Source of the DNA: a virus
Virus record (IMG/VR): IMGVR_UViG_3300032334_001128
Coordinates: 1-64,000 of that record
DNA: 64,000 nucleotides
Reading direction: 5' to 3' (one strand)
Shown here: positions 8,389-56,200 of the stretch, in pieces
Numbering within the stretch: position 1 is the stretch's first letter
How the letters are laid out: each line of letters starts with the position of its first letter
Translations under genes and position numbers: made by a program
The notes under the pieces: model-generated
The model's database searches: none
The model's input: only the letters and a program-made list of their open reading frames with translations
What the model was told of the DNA's origin: nothing

Positions 8389-8416
8389 TTTAGTGTCTAA
8401 ACGAAAGGAAATCCAA

Positions 8417-12122: not shown

Positions 12123-12159
12123 GGCAAGGTAAATGATTCCCGACTGAAAGGAAACTAAA

Positions 12160-12678
12160 ATGGGAATGGATGTCTATGGTAAGAACCCTGCTAACGAAGT
12201 AGGGTCATACTTTCGTAGGAATGTTTGGGGCTGGCGACCACTCTGGGATTACTGCCTAAATGTTCATAACGAAATTGCTGGTGCTGTTGAGTATGGACAC
12301 TCTAACGATGGCGATGGACTGGATGGAACTGCTAGCGTAGAACTTGCTAACGCTATTCTCTCTGCTATTGCCGATGGAACTGCTCAGGATTACATTACTC
12401 AGCGAAACACTTATCTCGCTAATCTGCCGAGATTAGACTGCGACCTTTGTGCTGGAACTGGAATCAGGGCTGACGAAGTTGGCGTTGAGAATGGAATGCC
12501 TGAAAGGGAACTTTCTGCCGAGATGGCAATTCTCTTAGGCAGAACTAAGGGCTGGTGTAATTCTTGTAATGGCGAAGGCAAGAAAGAATCTTGGGATACT
12601 AACTACGATTTGGAACTTGACGACCTGAAAGAGTTTGCCGAGTTCTTGCTAAATTGTGGTGGCTTTGAGATTTGCTAA
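12160..12678 (+). CDS. conserved phage protein with DnaJ-like CxxCxGxG zinc motifs
   Basis: MGMDVYG...YFRRNVWGWRPLW; CDLCAGTG and CNSCNGEG. Confidence 0.75.
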   Translation: MGMDVYGKNPANEVGSYFRRNVWGWRPLWDYCLNVHNEIAGAVEYGHSNDGDGLDGTASVELANAILSAIADGTAQDYITQRNTYLANLPRLDCDLCAGTGIRADEVGVENGMPERELSAEMAILLGRTKGWCNSCNGEGKKESWDTNYDLELDDLKEFAEFLLNCGGFEIC

Positions 12679-13610: not shown

Positions 13611-14093
13611 ATGTCTATCTTAGATATTGTTATTGTTCTACCGCTTGCCTATCTTGCGGTTGTTGCCATTCCCCTAATCGTTACTGACGCTAGGGTTCAT
13701 CGCCTACCTAACAAGTATGTGTTGCCGTTCATTCTTGTTTCATTCCTAACTACTATTGCGGTTGCGATTATTAGTGCCGATTGGATTAGGTTTGTAATCA
13801 CCTTTGGTGTTGCGGTTGCTACTTTGCTTATTGGTATCTATCTCAATGGTAGGGATATCTTGGGTATGGGCGATGTGAAACTATTTGTCGGTATCGTTCT
13901 TGCTCTAGGTTCATTCTCTCTGTGGTTTGCTCTTATTGCTATTGCGGTTGGCTTTGTAGTTTCAGTTGCGGTTACTCTAGTTAGAATGTTTGTAGTCAAG
14001 TCTGTAAGTATGTATGGGACTACAACTATTCCACTTGGCGTATTCACTATCTCAGCAACTTTGGTTACTGGGTTAGTTGCGGTTGTAATCTAA
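13611..14093 (+). CDS. A24-family prepilin peptidase-like membrane protein
   Basis: several TM helices; catalytic-type D in TDARVHRLPNK and GMGDVKL motif. Confidence 0.8.
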   Translation: MSILDIVIVLPLAYLAVVAIPLIVTDARVHRLPNKYVLPFILVSFLTTIAVAIISADWIRFVITFGVAVATLLIGIYLNGRDILGMGDVKLFVGIVLALGSFSLWFALIAIAVGFVVSVAVTLVRMFVVKSVSMYGTTTIPLGVFTISATLVTGLVAVVI

Positions 14094-19974: not shown

Positions 19975-20226
19975 ATGGAAGAACGCCTAAATAACTTACT
20001 TGCTAAGTTCGAAATTGCTCGCCTAGACCAAGTTGGTATTCTTGCTCGCATGGAAGGACTTGCTGTTGAAATCCGTAATGCCGAAGCAGATGAAGAATAC
20101 CTAACTAAGTTAGTAGCAGACTTGGACAACATGTTGACAAGATTGAAGAGCAACAAAAAACTTATGCTCGAAGTGATTGAAGGTATGGATTCAATCCAAA
20201 GAGAACTAAATCAGGAGGAAGAATAA
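19975..20226 (+). CDS. coiled-coil hypothetical protein
   Basis: AAAGGAAA RBS; heptad-like pattern. Confidence 0.7.
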   Translation: MEERLNNLLAKFEIARLDQVGILARMEGLAVEIRNAEADEEYLTKLVADLDNMLTRLKSNKKLMLEVIEGMDSIQRELNQEEE

Positions 20227-37435: not shown

Positions 37436-38551
37436 ATGACTCACTCAAAAACTACTCTAAAAGATCACTTAGCAGTGTCTCTAGCTAACGCTGTGGTTAT
37501 GTATCACACTAGCCACGGTTACCACTGGAACGTCAAGGGACTTGACTTCAGAGAGTTCCACGAATTCTTTGGCGAAATATATGAAGACGTCTTTGGTTCT
37601 ATAGACGAGTACGCCGAGAACATTCGTAAGATCGGATTTGACGCTCCTTTCACAATGCAGGAGTTCTTGGAGCTAGCTACCTGCGTTCCAGAGAAGGTCA
37701 CCGTTAGCGATCCGACTCGCTTGACCGCTTCTCTGCTAGACGTCAACCTAAAGCTTATTAGCAGCCTAAAGGCAACCTTTGACTGTGCTAACTCTCTAAA
37801 CGAGCAGGGCGTTGCTAACTTCCTAGCTGAGCGCATTGATGCACACCAGAAGTGGGATTGGCAGCTTGCTGCAACCCTTGGTAACCAGACTTACTCAACG
37901 TCATTCATTGTTGTAGAAGCTGATATGCAGCCACTACCTCAGACTCAGGAAGGCTGGGATGACGAACTTGCATTCCTAGATGGCTACGACAACGAAGGTA
38001 CTGCATTCTTTGCATCTGGCCGATCACGTGAACTAGTTCTTCCACAGAACGTTGAAGCAGAGCTAAAGTCTTTGGTTGACGCTCACAACGCTTCAGCAGG
38101 AGAAGGTCTGAAGACCACTTTTGCTAAGTGTAAGACCGTCTACCGCCGTGGAGCTCGTAAGTATGCTGGCGAACTAGCTGAAGGTACTACACGCCACCGC
38201 TTTGCAGTTGCTCGTGTTGAACAGTTCCTATCTCAGATTGGCAGCGAAAAGCTACTAGCTACATTTAGCACTGACGATGCAGATCTTCTACCAAACTCAC
38301 ACCCTAAGGCTCTAAGCATTGATCCTCTAGTAGCTTCTGCTGCTGTTAAGAAGGGTCTAACTGTGACTGTTAAGAAGCCTGGAGAATACAAGCGTAACGA
38401 GGACGCAGTCCTAGATATCGCTGAGTTCTCTGGTAAAGGCTACGACGCAGTGAGCCAGATCAAGGATGCTTGGATCTATGGACAGTCTAAAGGCAAGTCA
38501 GGCTACAATACAGCTCTGGCATTTGCACTAGGCTATTTCGTACACGGATAA
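37436..38551 (+). CDS. Dps/ferritin-like domain fused to a phage head-associated domain
   Basis: HGYHWNVKG...FHEFFGEIYEDVFGSIDEYAENIRKIG Dps motif; C-terminal KTVYRRGA...AVARVEQFL...DADLLP. Confidence 0.85.
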   Translation: MTHSKTTLKDHLAVSLANAVVMYHTSHGYHWNVKGLDFREFHEFFGEIYEDVFGSIDEYAENIRKIGFDAPFTMQEFLELATCVPEKVTVSDPTRLTASLLDVNLKLISSLKATFDCANSLNEQGVANFLAERIDAHQKWDWQLAATLGNQTYSTSFIVVEADMQPLPQTQEGWDDELAFLDGYDNEGTAFFASGRSRELVLPQNVEAELKSLVDAHNASAGEGLKTTFAKCKTVYRRGARKYAGELAEGTTRHRFAVARVEQFLSQIGSEKLLATFSTDDADLLPNSHPKALSIDPLVASAAVKKGLTVTVKKPGEYKRNEDAVLDIAEFSGKGYDAVSQIKDAWIYGQSKGKSGYNTALAFALGYFVHG

Positions 38552-38656: not shown

Positions 38657-41600
38657 GTGAGTCAAAATCTTAGTGCCCTTGTTGCCGCGTTAGAAACTAT
38701 CAACCAGAAAGATCTGGAGCTCAGCGTTGTTGAGACCGAACAGATATTCAAGAAGGGCGTTGTAACTCACGTTCTCCAGCAGAATGCTCTAGTTGCATCA
38801 ATCCGACAGGTGGCAATTAAAGACGTTCTAAAGTTCACCGACCGCTACATCGCTAGCAAGCTAGATAACGAAGACCCTCGTGATGTTTTCTTCAACGCTG
38901 CACGCGAGGTCACAAGTTTTGTTGAGTACGCTGTCAACGGTCCAGCTCTAGAAAGAGTGATGGCAGTTGAGCACAGGGACCTACTCCCAGCGGCTCACCC
39001 GTTCTCAACAAAAACCATTAGCCCAATTACCGCATCAGCACTTCGCGTACGCAATGCTGCCTGGGTAGCCTGGGACCCACGTATTACTGATGATGCAGCA
39101 CGTAAGGCTGTATTTGACGCATACGTACAGCAACCAAACACAACCAAGGGTTTGTATGCAGTTGCACGCCTTGAATCACTAACTGCTTCTGTTGTTCCAG
39201 CAGACATCAAGCTTGGTGCAGTTACAGCTGCATTTGGCGTTGGTAACCCATTTGCTGGTAACAACTCTTCAGCTGCTCGTTCTGCTCGTGCTAAGTTGCA
39301 GCGTCGTGACCGTAAGGGTCGATTTGCCGAGATGGGTGGAGGATCTCGTATCCTTGCAATGATCGGCAACATGATTAAGTCATTCACCGGTAAATTTGCT
39401 GGTATCCCTCAAGACAGCAACAACATTGAAGTTGAAATTGCTGGCAACTCAGATCTTCCTGGCGGTATTTACTCTGTACCAGCATCAAAGGTTGAAGGTC
39501 TTAAGGCTATTCTTCGTGGCAACATGGTATCTCCTGCAGTACCAGCCAACTCACGTAACTCACGTGCAGCTATCGACCTACAAGATCTACTTGCAAGCCG
39601 TAAGAGTGCTCCTACTGGTTGGACAGATAACGGTGATGGTAAATTCACATCTGCAGACGGTTATTCAGTTTCACAAATTGATATCCCTCAGGATGCAACT
39701 GGAATGAATGATAAAAATGGTAACTTTTTACCATTTGAACTTCAAGGCAAATTTATCGGTGCTGGTCCAAACGGATCATACGACCGATCTAAGCCTGTGT
39801 TCGAACTTAAAGATGCTAACGGCAACGTAGTTGGTCGCGCTCAGGAATGGGCAAACCTTCAGAAGCTTGCAGCAGACTCAGACGAGTCTAAGGGTGCAGC
39901 TCCTAAGACAAAGGCACGTCTAAGAACCCCACAGCCTGCTGGCTTCCGTCAAGAACCTGGCGACAACACAGAGCCTATTGACGTAGTTGGCGATTCTGAA
40001 GTAGAGCCGCTACCGGCACCTCCACGTAAAGAAGATGATAATTTTGAAGCTAACTACATAAACTATTTAGCCACTAAGGATTACAAAGCTAAGGACGTTA
40101 CAGATACCGATGGCAAGTACTTCCTATCTGAGCAAGAGCTAGCCGATGGCGGTAAACTTTGGCAAGTAGGCGACGATATGGACGACAACGGTCCTCAGTA
40201 TGTAGCCCAAAAAGCAGACGGTACTTTTGAAGTTAATGGTAAGACTTTCTACCCAAAGAACTACGGCGGGGATGTTATTTCTGCTGCAGATGATGCCTTT
40301 AGTACTGCTGATAAGAATAGATCTGCTGGCAAACGGGGCTTTGCACAGGAGGCTGGTAGCGAAGAAAAAGTTAACAGCGAAACACTGGACGGCTGGGCAA
40401 AAAAGTACGGTGCAGTAGAAACTACTACTCCAGATGACACTGCTAAAAACATGAGAAGATGGGCATTAGATGGCCATGATATTGTTATGGAGAACGCTAA
40501 TACTGATTCTATTAAGCCTTACAATTTTAAAATAAAGATTACTGAGGGCCCAGACGCTGGTAAGTTCTACTGGGGATCAAGCGTTGCAGATATCCCATCT
40601 AACTATCAGTACGGTCTATCTAGGGAAGAGGATTTAGAACAACTCTTTTCATTCCCTAAAAATATAAAACGTAAAAAAGATGGCTTAGAGCCACTAAAAA
40701 CAGATAAAAATCAGCAACGCGATAGCAAGATTGAAAGAATTAAAAACAATCGTGCTCAAAGAGCTAAAGTAACTAATGCTATAGCTACTGCAGACCCAAA
40801 AAAGATTCAAGAAGCCTTAGATGATGCAGCAATTCCAGAAAAATACCAGGATGTTCTAAAAGCTCAGCTCAAAAAAGCTCAGGATTTTGAAAATGGATTG
40901 AGCGAAGATCCGCACTGGACTAAAGACGAAATTGCTGCTATCGAACAGATGGCAAAAGATTACGGCTATGAAGGCGATATAGTTCCTAATGAAGAAGGCG
41001 TGTACTCATTTACGCTAGGAAGCGAGGATGACTATAGTTGGGCCGAGCTAACTATATTCCCTGGCAATAGAGCTGACTTAACTCAGTATACTACTGGTGC
41101 ATATAGTCCTGGTGGATGGGATGAGCCTCCTAGCCAGGATGTAGATTCAGAAACTAGATCAATCCCTGTAGGGTCTTCTATGGACGATCTCGAGAATATA
41201 TTTGCTGGTGGAGATAATAGCTCCGATGCGCCAGAACCACCAGAGCGTGACGAAGACGAGGGCTTCTACCAAAAGCCGGGCGAAGAACCAGAAATTAAAA
41301 CCGTTGATGACTACGTAAACTCAAAGTACGGTAGAGGTTTCAAGGAAACAACTACTGAAGCTGATAAAGCAGCTGGAAGACGCGTTTGGTTCTATGAAGA
41401 CACAGACACTGGCGGTGGCGGTGAGGTCACTCAGAATGCTGACGGCACTGTTGATATTTCAGGTACCACTTTCTCTCAGGGTATGTTTGGCGAGAGACAA
41501 TCAGAATTTGATGACAGCTTTGACCCTAACTTCTATGGCGAGGGTGAAGACGGTAGAGTCGGTGCAATTGACGACGCCTTTGGTACTATTAAGTACAAAA

Positions 41601-44600
41601 CAGGTGATCCTGGCGTACCTGACTCTGACGGCTTCGAGCAGGCTCCTGGCCTCCCTGGATTCAGACAGAAGTCCGGTAAGGGTAAATTTGAACTACCTGA
41701 AGACTTTGACAGTGTTAAGAACTGGAAAGATCTTGGCAATGGTAAGTACGAGTACACCTCTAAAGACGGACGTCTAAAGGTAAGGTACAACGAAGAATTT
41801 GACGCCGAGCCTGACGGTGAAGGCGGTATGCGTGGCTACGAAAACTCATACGCTGAGATTGAACTAGACGGTGAAGTAATTGAAGACAGTCTAGATGCTA
41901 ACGGTGCTTCTTTCCTTTTTGGTGAGGGTGAGAGAGAATTCGAACCAGCTGAGCTAGCTGACAGAGTAGTTAAGTCTCTTAAGGATGCCCAGAGCAAGGG
42001 CTTCAAGCAAGAAGCTGGGAAAGACTCAGAGGCCCAGGCCGAGTCATACTTAAATGAACTAGAGCAAGATGCTTCAGAGATTCTCGATAGAAACCCGATG
42101 GGCACCACTGAATGGACATCTAAAGATGGAAGAGTTAAGGCAGTTCACGGTGATGACGGCAGTGCTGGTGAATACGTCGAGGTATTCCTAGATGGTAAAT
42201 CCATTGGAGGTGTTGGTAAGTATTCCCCTGTGGAAGATCCAAAAACTGGAAATTATAGTGAACCATGGGATAGCCCTGATAAAGAGCCAGGTTGGGTAGC
42301 TGATGGGATCTACGAGCTTCTAAAGGAGAACCTAGCTACTGAAGGCTTCAAGCAAGAAGCTGGTAAAGAAAAATTTGAACTTTCAAAAGAGTTTTACAAC
42401 GACAAGAACTGGTCTAAGGAACCATTTAAAAATCCTGAATGGACTTCTGCAGACGGTAAGGTAAAAGTCAAGTACGTCTCTGATGGCGACGTAAATGATG
42501 AAGGACGTCCAGTTGACACTTCTTACCTAGAAGTATCCGTTGATGGCGAAGTCATTGGAGATATTTCCGCACCTAATGCCCTTCAGTACAACGCAGGTGA
42601 TCCTAACGACCCTGAATACATGAGGACCGGAATTCCAAGTTCTAAACTAGAACTAGACGAGTACGGCGACGATGTCCAGGCTATGGTTGACAATCACCTA
42701 AAGTCTAAGGGTGGCTTCAAGCAGTCTGCTGGTGAAGCAGGTGGAGTTCGCAAGTCTCACATTTCTGACCTAGACAACTGGTCTAGTGACCCATCAGATG
42801 GTGGAGAAGGTACATACACCTCTCCAGATGGACGTCTAACTCTCGAGGCTATGGCTGACGCTGACACCGACGGTGAAGGCGGAATGAAGGATCTATCTCG
42901 CATTGCTGTTTCTTATGACGGTGAAGAGATTGGAACTCTACCTAAACTTGGCGTAATGTACAACGAGGCAGATCTTGCTGACGACGTCGACAATCTAGTT
43001 AGCAAGTACCTAGAAAAGCAAACTGGTGGTTTCAACCAGCAGCCTGGTTCTGGCAGACGAAAAGTTGGAAACTTTAGAGTAATTCCTAGAGAAGAATTCA
43101 CCGACATTGTTGGTGCAGCTGATACTTCTGATGGCGGAATTGTACGTCTTGAGAAAACTAAGAACGGTACAATTACCCCTACCGCTTATAACAGATTTGG
43201 TCAGGTGATGGCTCAGAGCGAGCCTACAACTGATCTAGACGCTGCTCTAAAAGAGGGTGAGCGACTGCTATCTGGTCTTGAAGGCAAGGCCCAGGACAGC
43301 CCTGAAGTTTCTGGATTCTCTCAGAAGCCAGGCGAAGAGCCACCAGCCTGGACTAAGGATCCAGCTACTCCTTTGCAGTACAACAAGCTTCAGGGTATTC
43401 TTGACAACCAGGCTGACAGGCTTCCAACTGATGTCCGTGACATGGTTGAAGAAGCCGTTGCTAACAAGGCTCTAACCAAGGGCGAGATGGGCAAGCTCCT
43501 TGCTGAGGTTGGTAAGAGTGCTGATCTTTCAATTAGCTACACTCCTAAGGTTGATAAGGCTCATGCTTCTGATAGAGCTAACTGGAAGTATGATAAAAAA
43601 TCTAAGAGTTACTCATACACCTCTGCTGACGGAAGACTGTCTATTAATGCTGTGTCTCCAGAAGACGGTGCAACTACAGTAACTTATGACGGTAAGCCAG
43701 TTCAGATATCTAGACCTTACGGCAGTGAGATCTGGCAATCAGTCGATAACGGTGGAGTTCCTATTGGAGATTCTGTCGATACTGCTATCAAAGATCGACT
43801 AGATTTTGAAAATAAAACAGGCATCTATTCAGATAAGTCAGGCTTCGCTCAAGCTCCTGGATCTACTTCAAAAGCAATCCGTACTCCTCAGCCACAGGTT
43901 GACGAGGGTCGTGCGGCATCAGCTAAATTTGCCAAGGACGGTTTCCTAGAACAAACAACCAACTACGGCAGTGGTGACTCTGACTTGTCATGGGAAATTG
44001 ATGTTGATGACATGGAAAGTGCTGCAATAGTTGTTAAGTACTCTCCTAACCGTGGAACATGGTACGCATACGCTCAGTACAGAGATAAGAGAGGTAATCT
44101 CAGTACTGCTGAAAATGGCGACTTAGGAGACTTTAAGACTGCAGAAGAAGCTATGGCTGCAGCTAGTGCTTTTAATAACGATGAAGATCGTATGGATGAG
44201 TACAATGAAATCATTCGCGATGCTAGAAAAGCTCGTATGCAGGCAGTTGCAACTAAGTTTGAAGAGGCAGTTGCAAACAAAGACTACGATGCTCTAAAAG
44301 AGCTTTTAAATGATGAAGATGTTCTAACTTCAGAAGACTCCGATTTCTTAGAGAATGACATTCTAGAAGAGATGAACTCTATATCTCTTGAAGAAGAGCG
44401 CCAAAGCGATGTTGAGGATGCTCTCGCTTCGAATGATAAAGATAGATTAGAAGAGCTACTGGGTGATGACGACTACGAGGAGTATCACTCTAGGCTGGAA
44501 GACGCTATCAATGACTTCAAACATGGAGAAGAAGATCCAGACGGCTTCGAGCAAGCTCCAGGTAAAAAACTAACTCCTCGAAACAACCAAACTCTCAAAC

Positions 44601-47600
44601 CAAACAGTATTGGTGGCTACGATACAGGAACCGACGGGGATGGCTATATAGAAGTAAATCCTAACAAGGACGGAACATGGGAAGTAAGTCACGCATATAA
44701 CTACCTGATCGATGAAAATGGTCCTGAAGGTGTTATGGATGAGGGCTCACAGACTTTCAAGACTAAAGAAGAAGCTATGGCGTATGCTAACGATAAGCTT
44801 GAATATTACAATAGTCAGGAAGTCTATGATGATGCCTCTGATCACGCTATGGAAGCTGCATACCGTGGTGGAATGTACGATGAGGGCTTTGAGCAACGTC
44901 CTGGAAGACAAGTCAACATTGGTGATTTTGAGGTCTTTAAGGGTAACTATTCTCTAAGTGATAAATTTGAGGACTTCAATGTCAGAATTGAAAAGACTCC
45001 AGAAGGTAAATGGAAAGTAACTCCATCAGTCTTTGGATTCCCTGGAAACGATGTAAACCGCCGCGAGGACTGGTTTGATCAAACTCCTCAAACATTTGAC
45101 AACTTAGAAGATGCTAAGAAGTCAGCTGTTAAAGAAGCAAACTATCTAAGTAATGACACCAATAGATCCGGTGCCCTCGATGAGAGGGGACCAGGTTATG
45201 GTTTCGCTCAGAAGCCTGGAAAGAAAGTAAGTCCAGAAGTTTCTGCTAAGAACAAGGAACTAGCTAAGAGACTTATGGAAAAGGGTGCTTTTGATCCTGA
45301 TGGTGGTTTAGATGAAGATGACCCAGACTATGAAGCTCTTCAAGATATTAAGGATCGTAACGAGGCTTACCTAGATAACCTTGCTGCTACAGATCCAGCA
45401 GAGTATTTCTATACTATTGCTAAAGCTGGAGAGTTTATGGGCGCTGAACCATCTGACTTCAGACGTATGATTGAAAAGCCATACAACTACCATGCTGAAG
45501 TTCTTGAATCAGAGATGAACAGCTGGGTCGGAGACAACAACAGCGGCTACTGGTTAGATGAAATCGGTCACGGCTCTGAGGGCGAAGGCTTCGCTCAAAA
45601 AGCTGGAACTAAGAAAGTAAATCCAAAGGCAGCAATTCAAAAGATTATTGATGCAGCTCCTAAAGATCAGGGCTTTGCTCAGCGTGCTGGTAAAGAAGAC
45701 GGTTTAAAGAGCAACGGTACAATTGCTGGAGATATCTATGATCCAGAGACCTACGGCATGATGGACTGGGCATCTAAATGGACAGATTTCTCGGTTTCTG
45801 AAGGAGAAAATAGGCTTGGCGAGTGGTGGAAGTGGCAAGAAGAGTTTGGTCAGTGGGCAGTTAGCGAAGATCCAAAAGAAGCTGCGGGTCAGGGTCTAGT
45901 TGACGTCTACACTCTTCGTGATATTTTAGATGGAAACGTTGGCACGTTTAATCCTCTAAGCAAGAGAGATTCCGGTTGGCGTGATCGAGGAGATGGTAGT
46001 CACGAGTTTAAATCTGAGACTATAAATATATTCCCTACTAAAAATGATGACGGAACATTTGATTACACCATTACTAATGCGGCTACCGATGAGTTGATTG
46101 ACACAATCGAAAACGTAGGTGCGGCTGATAGTGTTGAAAATCTTATTTCTGGTGAATTTAGATCAGATTTGGAAGATATTGGCTATGAAGTCAGTGGTAG
46201 ATCTAGTAATGCTGTTAATCTATTCTCAGATCCATATGACAGAAGTAGAGGGTTTGCTCAAAAGTCTGGATCTGACTCCGGGCTATTAGAAGAAAATCCT
46301 GCAGCTATTAAACTCAGCGGTAAATTTAGTGATACCGGATCTGGTGGAATAAACTATCAGGATTCTGAAGGTAGATCCAAGGGTAGCGTACAAATGTTCT
46401 TTACTAAAGATAAGAATGGTAAAGAAAGCTACGGTTGGATGGTCGAGTACCTACCATCTAATGGAGAAGGTATTGTACGTAAGAGTTTTATGCAAAAATA
46501 TGACGGTGCCTACGAAGGAAAACCGTGGATTGCAGCTGAAAAACATCTAAGAAATCTAATTGCTAAAGACAATGCTAGCCAGAACAAACAAAAAACTGGT
46601 GGATTCTCTGCTAAGCAGATGGAACCTGCAACTCCTGCCCAGTATGCTCTTCTACAAGAGTACGCTGACGAGAGAGTACCAGCTGATGATCTAACTGCAC
46701 AGGCAATTCAAGACGCACTTGCTAACAGGAACCTAACTAAGGCACAGATGAGTGCTCTTATTGGTCCTATGAACGATGCTGAATTCAAGCCGGGCGTTGA
46801 CCCTAACAAGCCAAGCGACCGTGCTCTTAAGTCATTAAACAGCAAGCTTGTCACTAAAGATCTAACTCCAGAAGAAGTCAAGGACATCCTAGACAACCTA
46901 CCGAACATGAACCGTGCAGAAGTTGATGCTCTAAACGACAGGCTTCGCAGGAAGAAGGATCGTCCAGAGACCATTGGTTTCGCTCAAGAGCCAGGTGGTT
47001 CTGATGACGAGAACATGGAGCAGCTAATGGGCGACGACCTAGGCAACGACAGAAACGTTGAAACCCAGGGCGAAATGTCTGACTACTACAACTCTCTCAA
47101 AGGTGACCGTATTGCAGAACTTCAAAAGAAACTCGATGCTGCAAATGAAGAAATCAATATCTTCGGTCTAGATGACTTGCAAGAAATGCTAGACGAGGCT
47201 GACCCAGATAGCGAAGCTAACCTAAAGAGATATGGTAAAACTTGGCCTGCAGAGCAGTCTTACATTGCAGCTCAGGATCTTAGAGACGCTGCAGAGCAAA
47301 TTAGAAACAGCAATAACCCTAACGTTGACAAGAGTCTAGCTGATGATCTAGACAATGCCGCCAATCAGGTTATGAAGCGTATGGAAGATAGGATCAATCC
47401 ACTACTGTTCGCTTCAGTTGAAGATCCATATGGTACCAATTTTGATCTAGGTGATGTAGACACAGATCTAGACCAGATGCGTGAACTCTACTTTGAGACT
47501 GACACAGATGAGATCAAGAAATATCTAGATCAAACTGGAGTCTACGGTGACGTTAGATCTGGTGGAGCAGAAGCAGTAGTTTCTGATAAACCAGAAGAAG

Positions 47601-50600
47601 ATGGCGAAAACAAAGGCAAATACAGAGCTTCTGTAAGTTACGGTGGCGGAACTGCTGCTGATGATCAGGTAGAGTACTTTGATGACCCAGAAGATGCTAA
47701 AGACTGGGCAGCTAATGAAGTTTCTAACTTAAGTAGCTATCACCAAGTAGGTCTTACTCACCCAGACAAATCTTTCTCAGATCTTGATGCAGAAAGAGAT
47801 GCTGCAATTGCAAATGGCACTGAGCAGGAGTTCCTAAGTAGACTATCTGACGTAGCAAAAATAATGAGAGATCAGAGAGGCGATGAAAAGCTATCTCGTG
47901 AACTTGATGACTACGTTGAACGTGCCCAGGCAGCTCTTGACAAGAAGAAGGGCAACGCAGGAGGTCAAGGCTTCGCTCAAAGACCAGGATCTGATGAGAA
48001 CGAGCAAGATATAATCGACGACATCAAGTCTCGTGGACAAGATATCATTGATGGTCTTAGAGACAATGGCAAAATCGATGTTGAAACTGATGAAGAGTTC
48101 GAAGCTAGAATTGCTGACTATCAAAGGAACTTGGATGGTCTACTATTCCAACTAAACTTTGGCAATAGCGATACTTTAGAGCGTTTTGGGATGGATTTCG
48201 ATTCCACAGCATGGACAAGTTCTGGTAATGACGAACTTCTTGCTCAGCTAGAAGATCTAGTTCCAGAAGCTAGAAGACGTCGTAGTAGTGCTATTTATGG
48301 ATCCCGTGGCTTTGCTCAGGAACCAGGCTCCGGAACCCCTGTCAGAAATGACAAACTAAACCCAACCAGTGATGGTGGATTTGGTACTAATCCTTACTCT
48401 GATAGTCAAATTGAAGTCAATCCTACCAAAGATGGTAAGTGGGAAGTAAATCATGCTTATAACTACATGATTGACGAGAATGGTCCTACAGGTACCATTG
48501 ACGAGGGTTCTAAACTCTTTGATTCCAAAGAAGAGGCTCTTGCATTTGCTAATGAAAAACTTGACTACTACAACAGTTCTGATGTAGACAGAGATGCAGA
48601 AGATCACAATGCTGATCGTTATACTGGGTTTGATCAAAAGCCAGGCAACGCAGTTGTCTCTCCTAAGATGGGTGAACCAGCTTCAGATGCTCAGTACGAC
48701 TACCTCAAAGAACTTGGCGATACTCAGGATGGAATCAGTCCGGATCTAGCTACTGCAATCCAGGATGCTCTATCAAGTAAAAACTTGACAAAGGCTCAGG
48801 TGGGTGCATTGCTAGGACAACTTAGAGCTCTAAAGCCTAAGGCTGGTATTGATACAAGTAAGCCGACTCCTCGTCAAATTCAGAGAGTCAAAGATCTTGC
48901 GAACTCACTTGGCCTAAGCCCTGCTGAAAAGCGTAAGCTTGGTCTTAGCAAGGTGAGCAGCATGTCTTCTGATGAAGTTCAGAAGCTCATTGACAACCTA
49001 AAGCGTAGAGGCGGGGGAGACGAGGGGTCAGGTGGTGTCCGCCCAAAAGGTAGACCCGGCGATAAGCCGGGTGGTGGCGGATCAGTAGGTCAAGTACCCG
49101 GAAAATTAATTTCTTATACTCCTAGAAGTAAATTCTTAGAAAAAGATAGATCTGACGCTAAAGAAATTTATGACAGAGTAAATAAGAATCTTGACAAATA
49201 TGCTAGTCAGGATTCTGAATTTGCAAAAAAATTAGAAGAGTCTAAGAAGAAGTACCCTGAAGGCATCTACAGCATGATTGACATTGCTGCAGATCCTAAC
49301 TCTACTCAGCAGCAAATTGACGATGTTATAAAAGACGTCAATGATCTTAATAAAGCTCTGCAGAGTAGTAAAGCGGATGTATTTGCTGGAGACACTAATG
49401 TATTAGATGGTCTTGCTAAATATAAATTTGCCGAGCTAACCCCAGAAGTTAATAAACAAAAACTATCTGGAGGAAGCAAGAAGCACTCTGAAGGTGACAC
49501 TGTAGATTCTAGATTTAGTGCTATGTATAACCCTAACCTAGTTGAATACAAGAGCTCAGAAAATGGTAGGGGCTCCACTAATACAGCAATTGGTTATGTA
49601 ACTACCGATGCTTTAGAAGGCATGGCTGGAAATGAAATTCGTAATGCAAGTGTAGTTAACGATATTGCAAAAGATCTTAAAAATGGAGTTGGATTTAAAG
49701 AACCGATAATCATGATTTACGATCCAAAAACCGGTAAAGCATTTATTACTGAAGGTAACCATAGACTTGCTGCAGCAAAAAAGGCTGGAGTTAAATACGT
49801 TCCAGTAAGAATTGTAAATCTAGATGTAGCTCCAGGTGACCAGATTAAGATGGAGCGAGTTGGTAAGCCTCTAGGACGTAGAGCTGCCCCTATTGGCGGA
49901 GGTGAGTGGTCTTCAACAATTCAGCCTAGTCAAATATTTGATGACTCTCAGCTTCTCCAAGAAGATGCCGGAGGTTTTGCTCAAGCAGCCGGATCACCTA
50001 GAGCCAAGAGATTCAACGAAATGGCGGCTGACCGTAAGTTTGTAGACGCTACAACTGAAAAAGATGCTAAGAAAGATATTAGCCGTTGGAGTAGAGAAGA
50101 AAACGGTCTAAAAACTGAAATTACTGAACGTAATGGAAGATTCACTGCCAAGTTCAGCGATAAGCCTAAAGAAGAAGTAGACCTTGGTATCAATGAATCT
50201 GCAGCGTTTAAAGAGGCAGAACGCCAGATTATGCTCAGAACCGCTGAGTTTGACACTGTTGACCTAGATGGCTTTGCTCAAAAAGAAGGCGACAAGGGTC
50301 CTAAGCGTCAACGCGTTCTAGAAGCCATCGCTTCAGTAAGCAACGCCCTCGGTCTATTCGACGAGTGGAAGGGTAAGACTACCAAGGTTCGTGAAGATGT
50401 AAACAACGTTGGCGAATTTGTCAACAACATGCGTTACGTCAAGGCGGATCTTGAAAAAGCAATCAATAACCTAAAGAACTCTAAGGGTGTTGAAGAGAAG
50501 ATGGCTGCCATCTCTGAGCTGACTGCTGCAATCAAGAAAGCAAAACTTGCTGCAAGAATTGCTAAGGATCGTTGGAAGAGAAATCACCCTGAAGACCTGA

Positions 50601-53044
50601 AGCCTAAGGCTCCAAAGACTCCTAAAGCTATTGAAGCTCCTACAGTTGAAAAAGTTAGCAAGAAGTTTGAAGACGATTTAACTGCAGCTGAAGAAGCAAT
50701 CAGTCCTACCCCTGGACGACTTCCTAATCCTGAGCCTTACAACATTCCACGTGGTGGAGTGTACATGTATGACGAAAACGGTAACCGCCTACGTCAAGAT
50801 GGCACACCTTTTAGACCGATTGGTCCTTCAGATCTGGATGGCTTCGCTCAGTCCCTACCGACCGAGACAGTATCTCCTAAAGATTTCAAGGCTAGACAAG
50901 CTAAAGCTATAGCAGATAACAAGGCTGCTGCGGCTTCTATGATGGATATTTTCCGTAAGCGTATAAAGAACCCAGCTTGGCACAAATGGCAAGCTCCTTA
51001 CTCAGATTATCCTGCCGACGATCCAATGACTGCTCCGGTTAATCCGAGCAACATGCCATTTAACCCTTCATCTAATCATCAATATAGTGCGATAAACCAC
51101 CACGCTCTAGCTACTGCAGCTGCTGAACGTGGCTATACAGACCCTCGCTGGATGACTTCAGCACAGGCTAAAAAACTTGGTGCTACTGTTCGTGATGGCG
51201 AGCAGGGTGTGAAGATCATGACATTTATGACTATTGAAGATGAAGAATCTGGAGAGCGCTCAATAGTCCAAGTACCTAGATTTGTTTTTAACGCTCAGCA
51301 AATGGATGGTCTAGAGCCTTATAGTCCTAGCCAACAACCAAAGATGGATGCTGCACAGGCTATTGATTTCGTTCTTGGTAGATTTAGTGAAGCCGAGAAA
51401 AAGCGTGGCAAGAGTGGAAATATAAAGATCTGGGAGGATCTGTACGGTAGTGACACCCCTATGTGGAGTCCTGCAGGAGCTCGTAGGCCTGAAAATATTA
51501 GAATGCCTGATCGTAGCAAATACGACAGCCCTGAAGATTACCTATATAGTTTATTCCACGAACTAGCCCATGCAACTGGAACTCAGGATAGACAGGGTAG
51601 AGAAGCCCACCTAGCTCAAGCGCGTGGGGACATGACTATGGGTCAGCTAGCGGTTGAAGAAGCCACTGCCGAGATTGCTTCTCAGCTATTACTACAGCGT
51701 CTAGGTCTAAACTATAATCCAGACAGAACAGCCGAATACCTAAGATCTCACGATCTTAATGATGCTCAGCTAAATGAAGCAATGGCAAAAGCAGAGCTAG
51801 CAGTTGATTATGTACTAGGTAACGATGTTCTCCCTCCATGGCATAACAGCTCTAGCGACATGATGGAAGCTGCAGAAGTCCCTGGATATACTCCACCTGC
51901 TTCACGTAGCTGGAACCCTAATACTAACCTAGGTCCTCAGGACGCTCCTTCAGCATTCCCTGCTGGAACTCCAGGATCTGATGAAAACCCAGAAGTAACT
52001 GGTTTTGCTCAGAAGCCTGGAAAGTTTGACAGAACTGGTAAAAAGTCTGTAACTGATAGCAAGACTGCAACAGAAAAAGTTATGGCCGGTCTTCTTGAGA
52101 AGATCAAGCAGGGAGAGACTCCTTGGCGTAAGCCTTACAAAGAGGGCGAAAAGTACGCAGGTATAGCTCTACCTAGAAACCCATCGTCTAAGCACATCTA
52201 CTCGGGTGTAAACGCTATGGCTCTAAGATTTGCTCAAGAAGAGAATGGCTATAGCGATCCTCGATGGATGACCTATAACCAAGCTTCGGCAATGGGTGGT
52301 CAGGTACGTAAGGGTGAGAAGGGTACATTCATTCTTGTTCCTATGCGTATCACTCAGCAGGATGAGAAAGACCCAAACAAGAAGCGTTCATTCACCATGT
52401 TCAAAGCTACTGCAGTATTTAACGCTGAGCAGATTGATGGTCTGAATCTACCTGAACTATCTACAGAGAGCCTCCCTAAGATGACTCCTCTAGATGCACA
52501 GGAATTCATTGTTGAGCGTTACAAGAAGGCAATGGCAGCTCGTACCGGCAAGGCTCCAAACATCAAACATACTTATGTTGGAAGTGGTGGAGCACACCAG
52601 GCTCCAAACTGGGGAACCTTATCGGATGAAGTTACTCTACCTAACCTAGAGCAATTTAATTCTCCTGAAGATCTGTTTGACACAATCGCTCACGAACTTG
52701 TACACAGTACAGGCCACCCAGATCGTCTAGACAGATCGGATCTAACCAAGGACTATGCCAATGATTTAGAGTCTAGAGCTAGAGAAGAACTTATTGCTGA
52801 AATTGGAGGTGCTCTACTAGCTAATATGTTTGGTGTAGATGCAACATTTGATAACAGTGCAGCATATGTTCAAAGCTGGCTAAAGCACCTACAATCCAAC
52901 CCAGACGAGATTATCAATGCAACTAGCCAGGCCCAAAAAGCTGTAGACTATATTCTTGGTACAGATCTTGGAGACTGGAGCCCGATTGACGGATATAGCA
53001 TTGGAAATGCTGTCCAAAAACCTACAGAAGAAGAGGAGTCATAA
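38657..53044 (+). CDS. 4795-aa polyvalent head-module protein with 25 GFxQxxG linkers, a ParB-like domain and two ArdC-like (ssDNA-binding + zincin) units
   Basis: single open frame; ITEGNHRLAAA (ParB/Srx); PWRKPY...YSGVN...DPRWMTYNQ...VRKGEKG and AHELVH/FHELAH...EELIAE. Confidence 0.85.
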   Translation: MSQNLSALVAALETINQKDLELSVVETEQIFKKGVVTHVLQQNALVASIRQVAIKDVLKFTDRYIASKLDNEDPRDVFFNAAREVTSFVEYAVNGPALERVMAVEHRDLLPAAHPFSTKTISPITASALRVRNAAWVAWDPRITDDAARKAVFDAYVQQPNTTKGLYAVARLESLTASVVPADIKLGAVTAAFGVGNPFAGNNSSAARSARAKLQRRDRKGRFAEMGGGSRILAMIGNMIKSFTGKFAGIPQDSNNIEVEIAGNSDLPGGIYSVPASKVEGLKAILRGNMVSPAVPANSRNSRAAIDLQDLLASRKSAPTGWTDNGDGKFTSADGYSVSQIDIPQDATGMNDKNGNFLPFELQGKFIGAGPNGSYDRSKPVFELKDANGNVVGRAQEWANLQKLAADSDESKGAAPKTKARLRTPQPAGFRQEPGDNTEPIDVVGDSEVEPLPAPPRKEDDNFEANYINYLATKDYKAKDVTDTDGKYFLSEQELADGGKLWQVGDDMDDNGPQYVAQKADGTFEVNGKTFYPKNYGGDVISAADDAFSTADKNRSAGKRGFAQEAGSEEKVNSETLDGWAKKYGAVETTTPDDTAKNMRRWALDGHDIVMENANTDSIKPYNFKIKITEGPDAGKFYWGSSVADIPSNYQYGLSREEDLEQLFSFPKNIKRKKDGLEPLKTDKNQQRDSKIERIKNNRAQRAKVTNAIATADPKKIQEALDDAAIPEKYQDVLKAQLKKAQDFENGLSEDPHWTKDEIAAIEQMAKDYGYEGDIVPNEEGVYSFTLGSEDDYSWAELTIFPGNRADLTQYTTGAYSPGGWDEPPSQDVDSETRSIPVGSSMDDLENIFAGGDNSSDAPEPPERDEDEGFYQKPGEEPEIKTVDDYVNSKYGRGFKETTTEADKAAGRRVWFYEDTDTGGGGEVTQNADGTVDISGTTFSQGMFGERQSEFDDSFDPNFYGEGEDGRVGAIDDAFGTIKYKTGDPGVPDSDGFEQAPGLPGFRQKSGKGKFELPEDFDSVKNWKDLGNGKYEYTSKDGRLKVRYNEEFDAEPDGEGGMRGYENSYAEIELDGEVIEDSLDANGASFLFGEGEREFEPAELADRVVKSLKDAQSKGFKQEAGKDSEAQAESYLNELEQDASEILDRNPMGTTEWTSKDGRVKAVHGDDGSAGEYVEVFLDGKSIGGVGKYSPVEDPKTGNYSEPWDSPDKEPGWVADGIYELLKENLATEGFKQEAGKEKFELSKEFYNDKNWSKEPFKNPEWTSADGKVKVKYVSDGDVNDEGRPVDTSYLEVSVDGEVIGDISAPNALQYNAGDPNDPEYMRTGIPSSKLELDEYGDDVQAMVDNHLKSKGGFKQSAGEAGGVRKSHISDLDNWSSDPSDGGEGTYTSPDGRLTLEAMADADTDGEGGMKDLSRIAVSYDGEEIGTLPKLGVMYNEADLADDVDNLVSKYLEKQTGGFNQQPGSGRRKVGNFRVIPREEFTDIVGAADTSDGGIVRLEKTKNGTITPTAYNRFGQVMAQSEPTTDLDAALKEGERLLSGLEGKAQDSPEVSGFSQKPGEEPPAWTKDPATPLQYNKLQGILDNQADRLPTDVRDMVEEAVANKALTKGEMGKLLAEVGKSADLSISYTPKVDKAHASDRANWKYDKKSKSYSYTSADGRLSINAVSPEDGATTVTYDGKPVQISRPYGSEIWQSVDNGGVPIGDSVDTAIKDRLDFENKTGIYSDKSGFAQAPGSTSKAIRTPQPQVDEGRAASAKFAKDGFLEQTTNYGSGDSDLSWEIDVDDMESAAIVVKYSPNRGTWYAYAQYRDKRGNLSTAENGDLGDFKTAEEAMAAASAFNNDEDRMDEYNEIIRDARKARMQAVATKFEEAVANKDYDALKELLNDEDVLTSEDSDFLENDILEEMNSISLEEERQSDVEDALASNDKDRLEELLGDDDYEEYHSRLEDAINDFKHGEEDPDGFEQAPGKKLTPRNNQTLKPNSIGGYDTGTDGDGYIEVNPNKDGTWEVSHAYNYLIDENGPEGVMDEGSQTFKTKEEAMAYANDKLEYYNSQEVYDDASDHAMEAAYRGGMYDEGFEQRPGRQVNIGDFEVFKGNYSLSDKFEDFNVRIEKTPEGKWKVTPSVFGFPGNDVNRREDWFDQTPQTFDNLEDAKKSAVKEANYLSNDTNRSGALDERGPGYGFAQKPGKKVSPEVSAKNKELAKRLMEKGAFDPDGGLDEDDPDYEALQDIKDRNEAYLDNLAATDPAEYFYTIAKAGEFMGAEPSDFRRMIEKPYNYHAEVLESEMNSWVGDNNSGYWLDEIGHGSEGEGFAQKAGTKKVNPKAAIQKIIDAAPKDQGFAQRAGKEDGLKSNGTIAGDIYDPETYGMMDWASKWTDFSVSEGENRLGEWWKWQEEFGQWAVSEDPKEAAGQGLVDVYTLRDILDGNVGTFNPLSKRDSGWRDRGDGSHEFKSETINIFPTKNDDGTFDYTITNAATDELIDTIENVGAADSVENLISGEFRSDLEDIGYEVSGRSSNAVNLFSDPYDRSRGFAQKSGSDSGLLEENPAAIKLSGKFSDTGSGGINYQDSEGRSKGSVQMFFTKDKNGKESYGWMVEYLPSNGEGIVRKSFMQKYDGAYEGKPWIAAEKHLRNLIAKDNASQNKQKTGGFSAKQMEPATPAQYALLQEYADERVPADDLTAQAIQDALANRNLTKAQMSALIGPMNDAEFKPGVDPNKPSDRALKSLNSKLVTKDLTPEEVKDILDNLPNMNRAEVDALNDRLRRKKDRPETIGFAQEPGGSDDENMEQLMGDDLGNDRNVETQGEMSDYYNSLKGDRIAELQKKLDAANEEINIFGLDDLQEMLDEADPDSEANLKRYGKTWPAEQSYIAAQDLRDAAEQIRNSNNPNVDKSLADDLDNAANQVMKRMEDRINPLLFASVEDPYGTNFDLGDVDTDLDQMRELYFETDTDEIKKYLDQTGVYGDVRSGGAEAVVSDKPEEDGENKGKYRASVSYGGGTAADDQVEYFDDPEDAKDWAANEVSNLSSYHQVGLTHPDKSFSDLDAERDAAIANGTEQEFLSRLSDVAKIMRDQRGDEKLSRELDDYVERAQAALDKKKGNAGGQGFAQRPGSDENEQDIIDDIKSRGQDIIDGLRDNGKIDVETDEEFEARIADYQRNLDGLLFQLNFGNSDTLERFGMDFDSTAWTSSGNDELLAQLEDLVPEARRRRSSAIYGSRGFAQEPGSGTPVRNDKLNPTSDGGFGTNPYSDSQIEVNPTKDGKWEVNHAYNYMIDENGPTGTIDEGSKLFDSKEEALAFANEKLDYYNSSDVDRDAEDHNADRYTGFDQKPGNAVVSPKMGEPASDAQYDYLKELGDTQDGISPDLATAIQDALSSKNLTKAQVGALLGQLRALKPKAGIDTSKPTPRQIQRVKDLANSLGLSPAEKRKLGLSKVSSMSSDEVQKLIDNLKRRGGGDEGSGGVRPKGRPGDKPGGGGSVGQVPGKLISYTPRSKFLEKDRSDAKEIYDRVNKNLDKYASQDSEFAKKLEESKKKYPEGIYSMIDIAADPNSTQQQIDDVIKDVNDLNKALQSSKADVFAGDTNVLDGLAKYKFAELTPEVNKQKLSGGSKKHSEGDTVDSRFSAMYNPNLVEYKSSENGRGSTNTAIGYVTTDALEGMAGNEIRNASVVNDIAKDLKNGVGFKEPIIMIYDPKTGKAFITEGNHRLAAAKKAGVKYVPVRIVNLDVAPGDQIKMERVGKPLGRRAAPIGGGEWSSTIQPSQIFDDSQLLQEDAGGFAQAAGSPRAKRFNEMAADRKFVDATTEKDAKKDISRWSREENGLKTEITERNGRFTAKFSDKPKEEVDLGINESAAFKEAERQIMLRTAEFDTVDLDGFAQKEGDKGPKRQRVLEAIASVSNALGLFDEWKGKTTKVREDVNNVGEFVNNMRYVKADLEKAINNLKNSKGVEEKMAAISELTAAIKKAKLAARIAKDRWKRNHPEDLKPKAPKTPKAIEAPTVEKVSKKFEDDLTAAEEAISPTPGRLPNPEPYNIPRGGVYMYDENGNRLRQDGTPFRPIGPSDLDGFAQSLPTETVSPKDFKARQAKAIADNKAAAASMMDIFRKRIKNPAWHKWQAPYSDYPADDPMTAPVNPSNMPFNPSSNHQYSAINHHALATAAAERGYTDPRWMTSAQAKKLGATVRDGEQGVKIMTFMTIEDEESGERSIVQVPRFVFNAQQMDGLEPYSPSQQPKMDAAQAIDFVLGRFSEAEKKRGKSGNIKIWEDLYGSDTPMWSPAGARRPENIRMPDRSKYDSPEDYLYSLFHELAHATGTQDRQGREAHLAQARGDMTMGQLAVEEATAEIASQLLLQRLGLNYNPDRTAEYLRSHDLNDAQLNEAMAKAELAVDYVLGNDVLPPWHNSSSDMMEAAEVPGYTPPASRSWNPNTNLGPQDAPSAFPAGTPGSDENPEVTGFAQKPGKFDRTGKKSVTDSKTATEKVMAGLLEKIKQGETPWRKPYKEGEKYAGIALPRNPSSKHIYSGVNAMALRFAQEENGYSDPRWMTYNQASAMGGQVRKGEKGTFILVPMRITQQDEKDPNKKRSFTMFKATAVFNAEQIDGLNLPELSTESLPKMTPLDAQEFIVERYKKAMAARTGKAPNIKHTYVGSGGAHQAPNWGTLSDEVTLPNLEQFNSPEDLFDTIAHELVHSTGHPDRLDRSDLTKDYANDLESRAREELIAEIGGALLANMFGVDATFDNSAAYVQSWLKHLQSNPDEIINATSQAQKAVDYILGTDLGDWSPIDGYSIGNAVQKPTEEEES

Positions 53045-53275: not shown

Positions 53276-56200
53276 ATGATCACATTTATCGGCCAATCTG
53301 GGTCGTTGCTCTTGTTTACAAGTGAGCACCATGGTGTAGTTGTCGACACCGATTTTAATATGGTTGTTGAGTCAGGCGTTCCTGAGACTCTATTTTCTAG
53401 CCGTAGCTGGGAAAAATCTGATACAGAGCCTGGTCAAGATCTAACTGCTTTAGCCTCCATCTCTTTACAGACTATGGATGCAAAAACTATTATTGCGTCT
53501 GCTGGACGTATGTATACCATTCCAAAATCTGCTCAAGCAGAAGCCAAGAAAGCTCTTGAATGGCACAAGGAGCACCACCGTGGCGGCACTCCTGTCGGCA
53601 TGAATACAGCAAGAATTCTTGCTAAGGGTGGGCAAATAAGCCTACAAAAAGTACGCCACATCGCAAAGTACTTCCCTCGTCACGAAGTTGACAAAAAGGG
53701 TAAAGGCTGGAAGCCAGGCCAAGATAACTTCCCAAGCAACGGCAGAATTGCGTGGGCCTTGTGGGGTGGTGATTCAGCTTGGCGTTGGGCTGTTGATATT
53801 GTAAAACACGCAGATCCAAAACCAATTAAAGCTGGTGGCGGTTATCTGGCTCAGCAACAGCCTCAAGACCCTTTCCACAATGCGTTCACTCTTGAAGAAA
53901 ACTATGGTCCAGAGTTTATGGCTCGTGTATGCCTTGATGGATCTGGACTAGATCGCCTATACAAAGTTGACATCGATGGTCAAGTTTACGTGTGGGATAA
54001 CGACTGCTGGGACGACATGGGAAATGTCGACAGCGATGTCTGGGACTATGACCAGGGGTTAGATTATGAAGATGATGGCATAGAAAAAAGTCACATTCTT
54101 ATTGATGCATCGTCTGCTGTAATGATTGCAGCTCGTTTGGCAAACAATCCTTTCGGCAAAGTTTCTGTTTTTGATCTTGATGAGGACGAAGCTAGACTAG
54201 CTGCCCGATCAATTCCTGAAGAAGACTGGGAGATGATTGACCTAGGTATGGTAGCTGCTGGTGAAGGTGGTATTGGCCCAGCGTCATATACTCCAAAGGA
54301 ACGTGCAGCAAACGTAGCTAAGCAACCTCGCTCTGCGGGTGGAAGATTTGGATCAAAGGGTAGTAAGGCTCAAGTTGGCCAGAAGACTACACCTGGAGCT
54401 AGCAACCCTGGTTCAGCTCCAAGTGCTGGAAAACCTGGGGGCATAAGCCTGGAAGATCAGAGAAAGAATGCTAACTCCGGTCTTCCTCCTCAAGAAATAC
54501 TTGAAGGTCCTCTAGATACTTCTGGAATCCTTGGAGAACCTCGTACTCCAATCGATAGACCTAACGCTCGAATATCTGGCACTCTTCCTGCAATGACAAA
54601 GGAAGATCTCCACCAGGTTCTTTATGACTTCCCTGCTTGGGTTCAGAGCCAGCGTGCTTCTTATAGTCCTGGTGATTACCACACTCCTATGACTAGTGCT
54701 GGTGATGAGAAAAAAGAATCAGAAGACCCAGAATCTTACGACCACCCTTTACTTAAAAAGTGGCGTGCCACTAAACTCCGCGAAGAGATCAAACCTTCTA
54801 CAGACACTAGCTGGGCAGCCCCGGTTGTTGCTGCTGCAGGAGTGGCTGAGGCTCAGAAGCCAGCCGTAGATCCTGAGAAGGAAGTTCAAAAAGATGAAGC
54901 CAAACCAGAAGGTGCTCCAAAGAGCAATCCAAAACCTAGCGATCCTGGTAAGCCGGTACAGCTTACTCCTGAAACTTCTGACGTACAGCCTCTGTATTTT
55001 GCTATTGTTGCTCCAGATGACCCTCAAGCAGTAACCGATCTAATTAGCATGGTCCCAGCCAGCTCAACGTCAACTGCTCCTATGATCTACAAGCGCTTAG
55101 ATAAGAAGTGGGTTCGTGATGAGAAGACACTTGCTGATCTAAAGTCTGCAACTCCTCCACCTGTTGTCCCTCTTGACTCTGCAACTCTGAACGATGTTCT
55201 AAAGCAGGTTGACGGTCTAGTTGCATCTGCTGGTTACCTACAACACCAGATGATAGTTCTATGGGGACCTAGAGAAGATATTCTTGTTGCTGCTGGTGGC
55301 CTTGATAAAAACAGAGGTAACGCAGAAGAACTTCGCCGTTACTGGACTGTTGGCAAGGGTGCAGCCAAGATTCGTTGGAACACTAAGGGTGACTGGACTC
55401 GTTGTGTTCGTCATTTAGAAAAGTATCTAGGCCCACGTGCTAAGGGATATTGTGCTCTACGCCACAAGGAAGTTACTGGTCTGTGGACTGGTGATAAGCG
55501 CCATCGTGAGCTATATGGACGTAAGGGTGTAAATAGTAACAAGGCATTCTTCAGTGATGAAGTCCTTAAGTCTTCAGAAATGGTCATCGACTCAGTAACC
55601 TTAGTTGCTCGTGCTAATGATGCTAAGCACCGTCTAGGTCTATTGGCAAGTGCACCTATTGCCACATCTACTAATGGAGGAATGTTCCGTATTCCTTTAG
55701 TAATCCCTGAGGGTAAGCAAACCGGAGATGGTCGTACTTTCCGCAAGGGATCAATCACAATGCGTGAACTACCACTGCCATTGCTATGGCAAGTTAGAAC
55801 TTCAGACGGACACAATGGGTCCGTTGTAATCGGTCGAATTGACCGAATGGAGCGTACTGAAGAAGGTATTGGAAATGCTGTTGGCATTTTTGATACTGGA
55901 GAGTATGGGCGTGAAGCCGAACGTTTGGTTCGCAACGGATTTATTCGTGGCGTATCAGCCGATATGGATCAGTTCGAGGCTGAAGAAGAAAAAGAAAAGA
56001 AAACTTCTAAGTCAAAGACTGAGAACGACATCGACATCGATGACGATAAAAAAGTTGGTGGGGACAAACTCACTATAAATAAAGCTCGGGTAATGGCAGT
56101 CACTATGGTGCCAAAGCCCGCGTTCCAAGAATGCAAAATCTTCCTCGTAGAGGAAGGTGAACCCCAGGAGGATAATATGATTCCACAAGATGGAATATAT

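Follow-up and report, generated by a model that had tools for sequence, protein, structure and literature searches.

Why should a phage carry an open reading frame (ORF) of almost five thousand codons in which one short peptide recurs 25 times? We addressed this question in an uncultured phage genome of 126,293 bp (IMG/VR record IMGVR_UViG_3300032334_001128), of which the first 64 kb are hereafter called the window. The source is an uncultured lake phage of actinobacteria. At the DNA level, its portal gene shares 65-70% identity with its counterparts in the Actinomycetia phage DSL-LC01 and in large phages of Microbacterium and Arthrobacter. The ORF in question (38657-53044, plus strand) starts with GTG, stays open in a single frame for 4795 codons and encodes a giant polyvalent cargo protein of 4795 aa, P0001, with matches to the Pfam families ArdcN, MPTase-PolyVal, and Tc-38. 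The original prediction, made from the sequence alone, described it as a polyprotein-like head cargo divided into about 25 effector modules by a G-F-x-Q-x-(P/A/S)-G linker, which a phage or host protease would cut or which, alternatively, would serve as a docking motif. As detailed below, the giant protein belongs to a class that has already been described, and its junction peptides are candidate processing sites.

A junction peptide between folded modules

A regular-expression scan of the giant ORF returned exactly 25 in-frame GFxQ, each at one of the positions originally listed, and 24 of them carry a Gly at position 7; as had also been noticed, there is one exception, GFAQSLPT at 50840. Residue shuffles of the same protein contained 0.58 GFxQ on average and at most 4, and for the fuller pattern GF.Q..G the 24 occurrences compare with 0.05 expected from composition. 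Elsewhere in the genome, a six-frame scan of the 126,293 bp found four GFxQ in ORFs of at least 80 aa, none of them followed by the x-[PAS]-G tail. Outside the window, near position 103139 of the genome on the minus strand, a 1458-aa ORF contains GFAQLQGT within a GxQ-type collagen-like repeat (GIQGVQGFGFAQLQGTQGTQGT), probably a chance occurrence with no relation to the junction motif.

The peptide had been placed at module borders and outside folded domains, and structure prediction agrees on both points for all ten motifs that were modelled. In an AlphaFold2 model of residues 1340-2330, the eight motifs covered all fall in coil with a predicted local distance difference test score (pLDDT) below 50 that separates beta-plus-helix or helical modules of pLDDT 70-89, and the two motifs in an AlphaFold model of residues 4040-4795 (33 sequences) lie in pLDDT<50 coil as well; the folded modules beside the modelled motifs have pLDDT 70-90. 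Hydrophobic content falls within 10 residues on each side of the motifs. Splitting the chain at the motifs gives 26 segments, mostly of 95-330 aa, which include several paralogous module families.

All junctions are on the plus strand. The series begins with GFRQEPG (junction 1, 39941-39961), GFAQEAG (2, 40337-40357), and GFYQKPG (3, 41261-41281), followed by GFEQAPG (4, 41630-41650) and GFRQKSG (5, 41657-41677), a tandem with its copies 9 aa apart that is kept in the relatives P0002-P0004, and by two copies of GFKQEAG (6, 41999-42019; 7, 42344-42364). The next eight are those of the first structural model, each in pLDDT<50 coil: GFKQSAG (8, 42713-42733), GFNQQPG (9, 43028-43048), GFSQKPG (10, 43313-43333), GFAQAPG (11, 43841-43861), GFEQAPG (12, 44543-44563), GFEQRPG (13, 44885-44905), GFAQKPG (14, 45200-45220), and GFAQKAG (15, 45587-45607). 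A 28-aa spacer separates the last of these from GFAQRAG (16, 45671-45691), a pair that is kept in P0002. Then come GFAQKSG (17, 46250-46270), GFAQEPG (18, 46976-46996), GFAQRPG (19, 47969-47989), GFAQEPG (20, 48308-48328), GFDQKPG (21, 48626-48646), GFAQAAG (22, 49973-49993), and GFAQKEG (23, 50270-50290). Junction 24 is the exceptional GFAQSLP (50840-50860, pLDDT<50 coil), at which relatives have GFAQTLPS or GFSQTLPS, and junction 25, GFAQKPG (52001-52021), lies in coil of pLDDT 26-32 between two ArdC/MPTase units. If the motifs are cut sites, the close pairs (41630-41677 and 45587-45691) would free small spacer peptides.

Polyvalent proteins of phages and conjugative elements combine 2-15 domains, and their processing by MPTase domains has been predicted (Iyer et al. 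2017, PMC5512222). P0001 is a polyvalent protein in this sense, since it unites many unrelated domains in a phage context, MPTase-PolyVal domains with HExxH, and ArdC-N and ParB-like effectors. The original prediction knew of no described phage system of this kind, a claim that has to be withdrawn because both the class and its predicted proteolytic processing are found in that study. No junction or cleavage motif of polyvalent proteins was found there (the word 'linker' has 0 matches) or in the searchable literature. The class of giant protein is already known; what appears to be new is its punctuation by a conserved junction peptide.

The cargo does include the anti-restriction and DNA-binding parts that had been proposed for it. 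Pfam searches recovered two copies each of MPTase-PolyVal (PF18818, 137.8 bits against a cut-off of 27.5) and ArdC-N (PF08401, 163.5 bits), and the anti-restriction family PHROG 7245 was also matched (E 8e-105). The first ArdC-N plus MPTase unit (50840-52000, MPTase match at 51488-51748) reads HELAH and the second (52001-53041, ArdC-N at 52067-52420 and MPTase at 52616-52930) HELVH, the HExxH signature being kept in both MPTase copies. Upstream of them lies a ParB-like domain (residues ~3643-3723, 49583-49825; PHROG 8071 ParB-like, E 5.4e-5), with a weak SerK row (ParB/Srx fold) and PF02195 in relatives as additional basis. At the opposite end, residues 1-428 (38657-39940) form a conserved N-terminal domain. 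It is the best-conserved part of the giant protein (~70% identity to P0002 and P0003), its residues 78-348 share 38% identity with the giant protein of DSL-LC01, and the sub-region 200-320 recurs in other head-module proteins. Because this domain is free of the junction motif, best conserved and DSL-LC01-like, we read it as the probable head-incorporation part and the remainder as cargo.

Further annotation of the modules was sought in several ways. For the 991-residue model, Foldseek found no PDB structure at E<=0.001, with weak PUR-alpha/MRP (Whirly-like) rows at E 0.02-0.1, and VIA-align wide returned generic helical-hairpin matches alone (Z<=8.2); the unknown modules received no fold assignment. 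The module at residues 1963-2076 had no usable match in ESM Atlas, and Pfam at E<=1 and NCBIfam added no module annotation of the giant protein.

Related giant proteins and a putative frameshift cassette

The homologs P0002 (3220 aa) and P0003 (3341 aa) carry 17 and 19 copies of the motif, respectively. In ortholog alignments, G, F, Q, and the Gly at +6 are identical in a fraction of 0.90-0.93, versus 0.42-0.6 for the flanks and 0.32 for the x positions. That homologs keep the motif and gain or lose modules precisely there had been anticipated, and it is what we observed. The modules at residues 2077-2181 (after junction 13) and 3218-3323 (after junction 20) are absent from P0002, motif to motif, and in the second ORF of a relative, 595 aa are inserted exactly at junction 23 (motif at residue 3872). 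Internal breakpoints of the BLAST alignments lie within 12 aa of a motif in 33 of 51 cases, whereas 6.7 were expected and the maximum in 5000 randomisations was 16.

A phmmer search of 1.84 billion representatives retrieved 11 proteins only, the distant ones with motif versions of their own: GF[NDA]QGER (16 copies), GF[DAG]Q[SAE]AG (17 copies), G[FL]DQxxG, PG[LF]DQDAP, and EGLGQxxP; a further lineage, L042, has 10 GLDQxA[PKS]. Over 11 related giant proteins there are 140 G[FLY]xQ against ~13 expected, whereas the control G[FLY]xE shows no enrichment (36 against ~30). The residues downstream of this core are uniform within a protein and specific to a lineage (xPG, GER, xAG, DAP), as would be expected of sites that track one reader. 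At the junction before the second ArdC unit, [G/S/A]-[F/L]-x-Q is kept in many double-ArdC lineages and lost in others. When IMG/VR was scanned with a DNA pattern for GFAQKPG, 25 matches were obtained, with arrays on 3 contigs of the same clade and the other 22 being single chance matches. The giant proteins of DSL-LC01 and of the Microbacterium phage Pumpernickel contain no GFxQ and no comparable repeated motif, and the locus of P0005, sought in viral contigs, was not found.

In relatives, the region from the ParB-like domain onwards appears to be reached by another route. The cargo ORF there terminates with ...NSPKA or ...NPKA, and ParB and both ArdC/MPTase units are encoded in a second frame after it. 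We looked for the elements of -1 frameshifting, namely a zero-frame heptamer X_XXY_YYZ, a spacer of 5-9 nt, a stem-loop beyond it, and an open -1 frame that lacks a start codon of its own, and found all of them in the relatives: the heptamer C_CCA_AAA, a spacer of 6 nt containing the stop codon, a CCCCC-loop-GGGGG hairpin, and a -1 frame with no ATG, GTG, or TTG before the ParB core. In L004, the heptamer is at 20014-20020 and the hairpin, CCCCCGAAAAGGGGG, at 20027-20041; in L042, they are at 13845-13851 and 13858-13872, respectively. RNA folding of the 71-nt frameshift stretch contained the hairpin with a stability not above that of shuffles (z -0.56), and the case for frameshifting therefore rests on the cassette being kept between two lineages at only 43-48% protein identity, with a junction motif ~14 codons past the slip. 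In the relatives, a conserved putative -1 frameshift cassette thus joins the cargo ORF to the ParB/ArdC-MPTase ORF. The cassette is missing from the window phage, which at the same place has an in-frame Gly-rich connector (~49052-49156, plus strand) where the relatives have the stop codon and the cassette.

A separate irregularity was seen in L042 at 12060-12180, where an in-frame TGA splits two polyprotein ORFs and DLEGLDQ occurs shortly before and after it. This could be a case of readthrough, of restart at a nearby ATG, or of a recent nonsense change.

The head module around the giant gene

The giant gene had been described as flanked by portal/Dps on one side and the prohead protease on the other, and the profile matches of its neighbours (PHROG 776, Pfam Ferritin, PHROG 18402) place it there. 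The gene order, which is common to related phages, is portal, ferritin/Dps-like protein, giant protein, prohead-protease-bearing protein, and capsid, all those described here being on the plus strand. This position between portal and protease/capsid suggests that the giant protein would be carried inside virions and enter the host cell with them.

The portal protein (35658-37424, 588 aa) matches PHROG 776 with an E value of 4e-103. The ferritin/Dps-like protein (37436-38551) matches Pfam Ferritin over residues 11-150 (E 5.6e-17), continues with a C-terminal extension of ~220 aa, and has no GFxQ according to the genome scan. The extension reads VYRRG...ARVEQFL...DLLPNSHP, with RHRFAVARVEQFL between VYRRG and DLLPNSHP. 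At the place of the Dps-like gene, L042 has a 338-aa ORF (8358-9371) whose end is VYRRGAGAF...WAMARVNAYL...DLLPKGHP, and the DLLPAAHP in the N-terminus of the giant protein (38657-39010) parallels the DLLPNSHP of the Dps-like protein.

Downstream, a 1570-aa head protein (53276-57988) matches PHROG 859, 18402, and 29860 and has no junction motif. Its head-maturation protease region lies at ~55706-56914 (PHROG 18402, E 4e-57); a Peptidase_S78 match at 55808-56146 scores 17.7 bits, under the 21-bit cut-off, and a PDB sequence search with the protease region gave no match. The N-terminal domain of the giant protein and this head protein share the pattern RD..G[RK]F, which occurs in exactly two ORFs of at least 100 aa in the genome (RDRKGRF at 39305 and RDEYGKF at 57506). 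The region around it is common to other head-module proteins of DSL-LC01 and Pumpernickel, and judging from these sequences the peptide may be a head-address tag. The next gene encodes a 610-aa probable major capsid protein (58126-59958), so named from its position and conservation, with synteny to the annotated major capsid protein of DSL-LC01. It begins with an acidic, delta/scaffold-like region of ~200 aa, near the end of which Gln and Glu interchange among lineages at two conserved places, SF[Q/E]AP and PV[I/V][Q/E]V, which are possible maturation sites of the prohead protease.

Processing, docking or recombination, and known systems

Proteolytic processing is, in our judgement, the best reading of the junction peptides, with about an even chance of being right. 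What speaks for processing is the combination of an invariant four-residue core, lying in exposed linkers at module borders, with downstream residues that vary by lineage. The cut would most likely follow the invariant Gln, with Gly at P4, Phe, Leu, or Tyr at P3, and Gln at P1. The N-terminal domain would probably anchor the giant protein in the prohead, and behind this anchor would come ~25 small, independently folding modules, then the ParB-like domain and the two ArdC-N/MPTase units, the modules being connected by short disordered linkers with G-F-x-Q-x-(P/A/S)-G. Cutting at the junctions, in the capsid or after injection, would turn a 530-kDa chain into small pieces.

The recognisable proteases of the genome are the HK97-type (S78-like) prohead protease and the two MPTase domains of the giant protein only. 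Trypsin_2 had no match in the genome while its controls matched, Peptidase_C3 had none but its controls matched nowhere either, and Proteasome/HslV was not found in the genome. If cleavage takes place, the S78-like prohead protease and the MPTase domains within the giant protein itself are candidates of about equal likelihood, a host protease being less likely. Several observations weigh against these enzymes or against processing as such. For the prohead protease, whose gene is nearby, no cleavage code shared with capsid, portal, or protease was found: the junction motif is absent from the capsid, portal, and protease-bearing proteins of this phage and of two further lineages including L042, and the capsid sequence that comes closest to it, SFQAP, reads PFEAP in relatives. 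For the MPTase domains, there are double-ArdC proteins with an MPTase unit 50-61% identical that have no motif at the equivalent junction, and in the AlphaFold model of the two ArdC/MPTase units the junction is disordered and shows no sign of docking, an observation that we did not count against binding. ArdC has no known protease substrate, and its protease activity is dispensable for R388 conjugation into P. putida (PMC7213743). More generally, we found no cultured relative that carries the motif.

The codons of the motif add a further reservation. The original prediction had concluded from their variation that selection acts on the peptide. The variation was indeed seen, but it is skewed towards GGC (16 of 25 against a background of 24%), TTC (16 of 25 against 40%), and GCT (12 of 13 against 53%); a DNA-level component or common descent is therefore possible, which counts against processing. 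In agreement with common descent or recombination at the linkers, the core 21-mers are also 65% identical at the DNA level, compared with 29% in the flanks. These data suit a different explanation in which the peptide is a joint left by module shuffling, copied along with each module, kept by descent and occasional gene conversion, and acting as a neutral hinge that nothing reads. Module exchange exactly at the motifs, the paralogous module families, and variants that are uniform per protein and lineage-specific, as from concerted evolution, would all follow from it. We nevertheless consider it improbable, as synonymous sites vary, conservation is lower at the x positions than in the flanks but reaches at least 90% at G, F, Q, and G between orthologs of 45-70% identity, and G-[F/L]-x-Q persists across lineages with barely alignable modules; a neutral hinge would not retain an invariant Gln in 140 copies.

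The other alternative is a binding function: a motif that is exposed, disordered, and conserved suits a docking site as much as a cut site. The junction peptides would then be linear tags that attach to the inside of the capsid, to a loading factor, or to a protein of the host, giving a tether of ~25 points or a multivalent display. Possible parallels are found in T4, with its capsid-targeting sequences, and in HK97-fold encapsulin shells, to which cargo-loading peptides bind. In favour of docking, tandem motifs spaced 6-9 aa apart are kept, the capsid protein is far more conserved (93% and 70% identity) than the cargo, and the gene adjoining the giant gene encodes a ferritin-like protein, a typical encapsulin cargo. 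That Dps-like neighbour and the other head proteins, however, are without the motif, which is therefore not a general loading tag; RD..G[RK]F and DLLPxxHP are better candidates for an address, and a pure tether leaves the presence of a motif at every module border unexplained. We thus regard docking as unlikely. Returning to proteolytic processing, its most specific version would make G-Phi-x-Q the first concrete code by which polyvalent proteins are cleaved: a head cargo comparable to Gag and Gag-Pol, to which a -1 frameshift adds a peptidase extension in the relatives, would be cut into ~25 effectors by a dedicated phage peptidase, possibly an ArdC-type MPTase, with codes that evolve together with their reader. 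We advance this version tentatively and hold it to be doubtful.

Phages and conjugative elements widely encode polyvalent proteins, which are thought to be the first proteins that an infected host cell meets. Whether and where they are cut has been a matter of prediction since 2017, and the junction peptide makes this question approachable by experiment: it sets the module borders of ~20 unknown cargo domains, which become separately expressible, and it provides a candidate substrate for an ArdC-type metallopeptidase. It also hints at a mechanism for the rapid swapping of modules in anti-defence arsenals.

P0001 resembles other polyvalent proteins in being a giant multi-domain phage protein with MPTase-PolyVal, ArdC-N, and ParB-like domains, many uncharacterised small domains, and a virion gene neighbourhood. 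It differs from them in that its ~25 modules are punctuated by one conserved peptide, of which relatives have lineage-specific variants. Outside this class, the polyproteins of RNA viruses and retroviruses offer a parallel in their repeated short sites between functional units, with an aromatic P3 and a Gln at P1, such as the potyvirus NIa/TEV (tobacco etch virus) site E-x-x-Y-x-Q↓G/S. The likeness extends to Gag-Pol, as the peptidase-bearing part is added by a predicted -1 frameshift in the relatives, while the window phage has an in-frame fusion; in contrast, there is no homology, and the genome searches with Trypsin_2 and Peptidase_C3, the latter with controls that matched nowhere, brought up no chymotrypsin-like or 3C-like protease.

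Closer to the head module, the T4 prohead protease gp21 follows the code L/I-x-E, and in T4-like and phiKZ-like phages one code marks all prohead protease substrates. In SPN3US, A-x-E is the site after which gp245 cleaves the capsid, the portal, and ejection proteins (PMC10052503). The junction peptide formally resembles these codes in its defined P3 and P1, here hydrophobic and polar, respectively, around a free P2, and its cargo gene lies in the head module beside the protease. The T4 and SPN3US codes are found in the capsid, the portal, and the protease itself, and most of the cuts remove N-terminal propeptides, whereas the code described here is confined to one protein, in 25 internal copies, and has Gln rather than Glu at P1. 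Finally, both C-terminal units of the giant protein share with ArdC of plasmid R388 the ArdC-N single-stranded DNA-binding domain and the HExxH metallopeptidase domain (PMC7213743). Whereas the R388 protein is a stand-alone one of ~297 aa (domain range 151-297), here two such units end a chain of 4795 aa, with a junction peptide before each of them.

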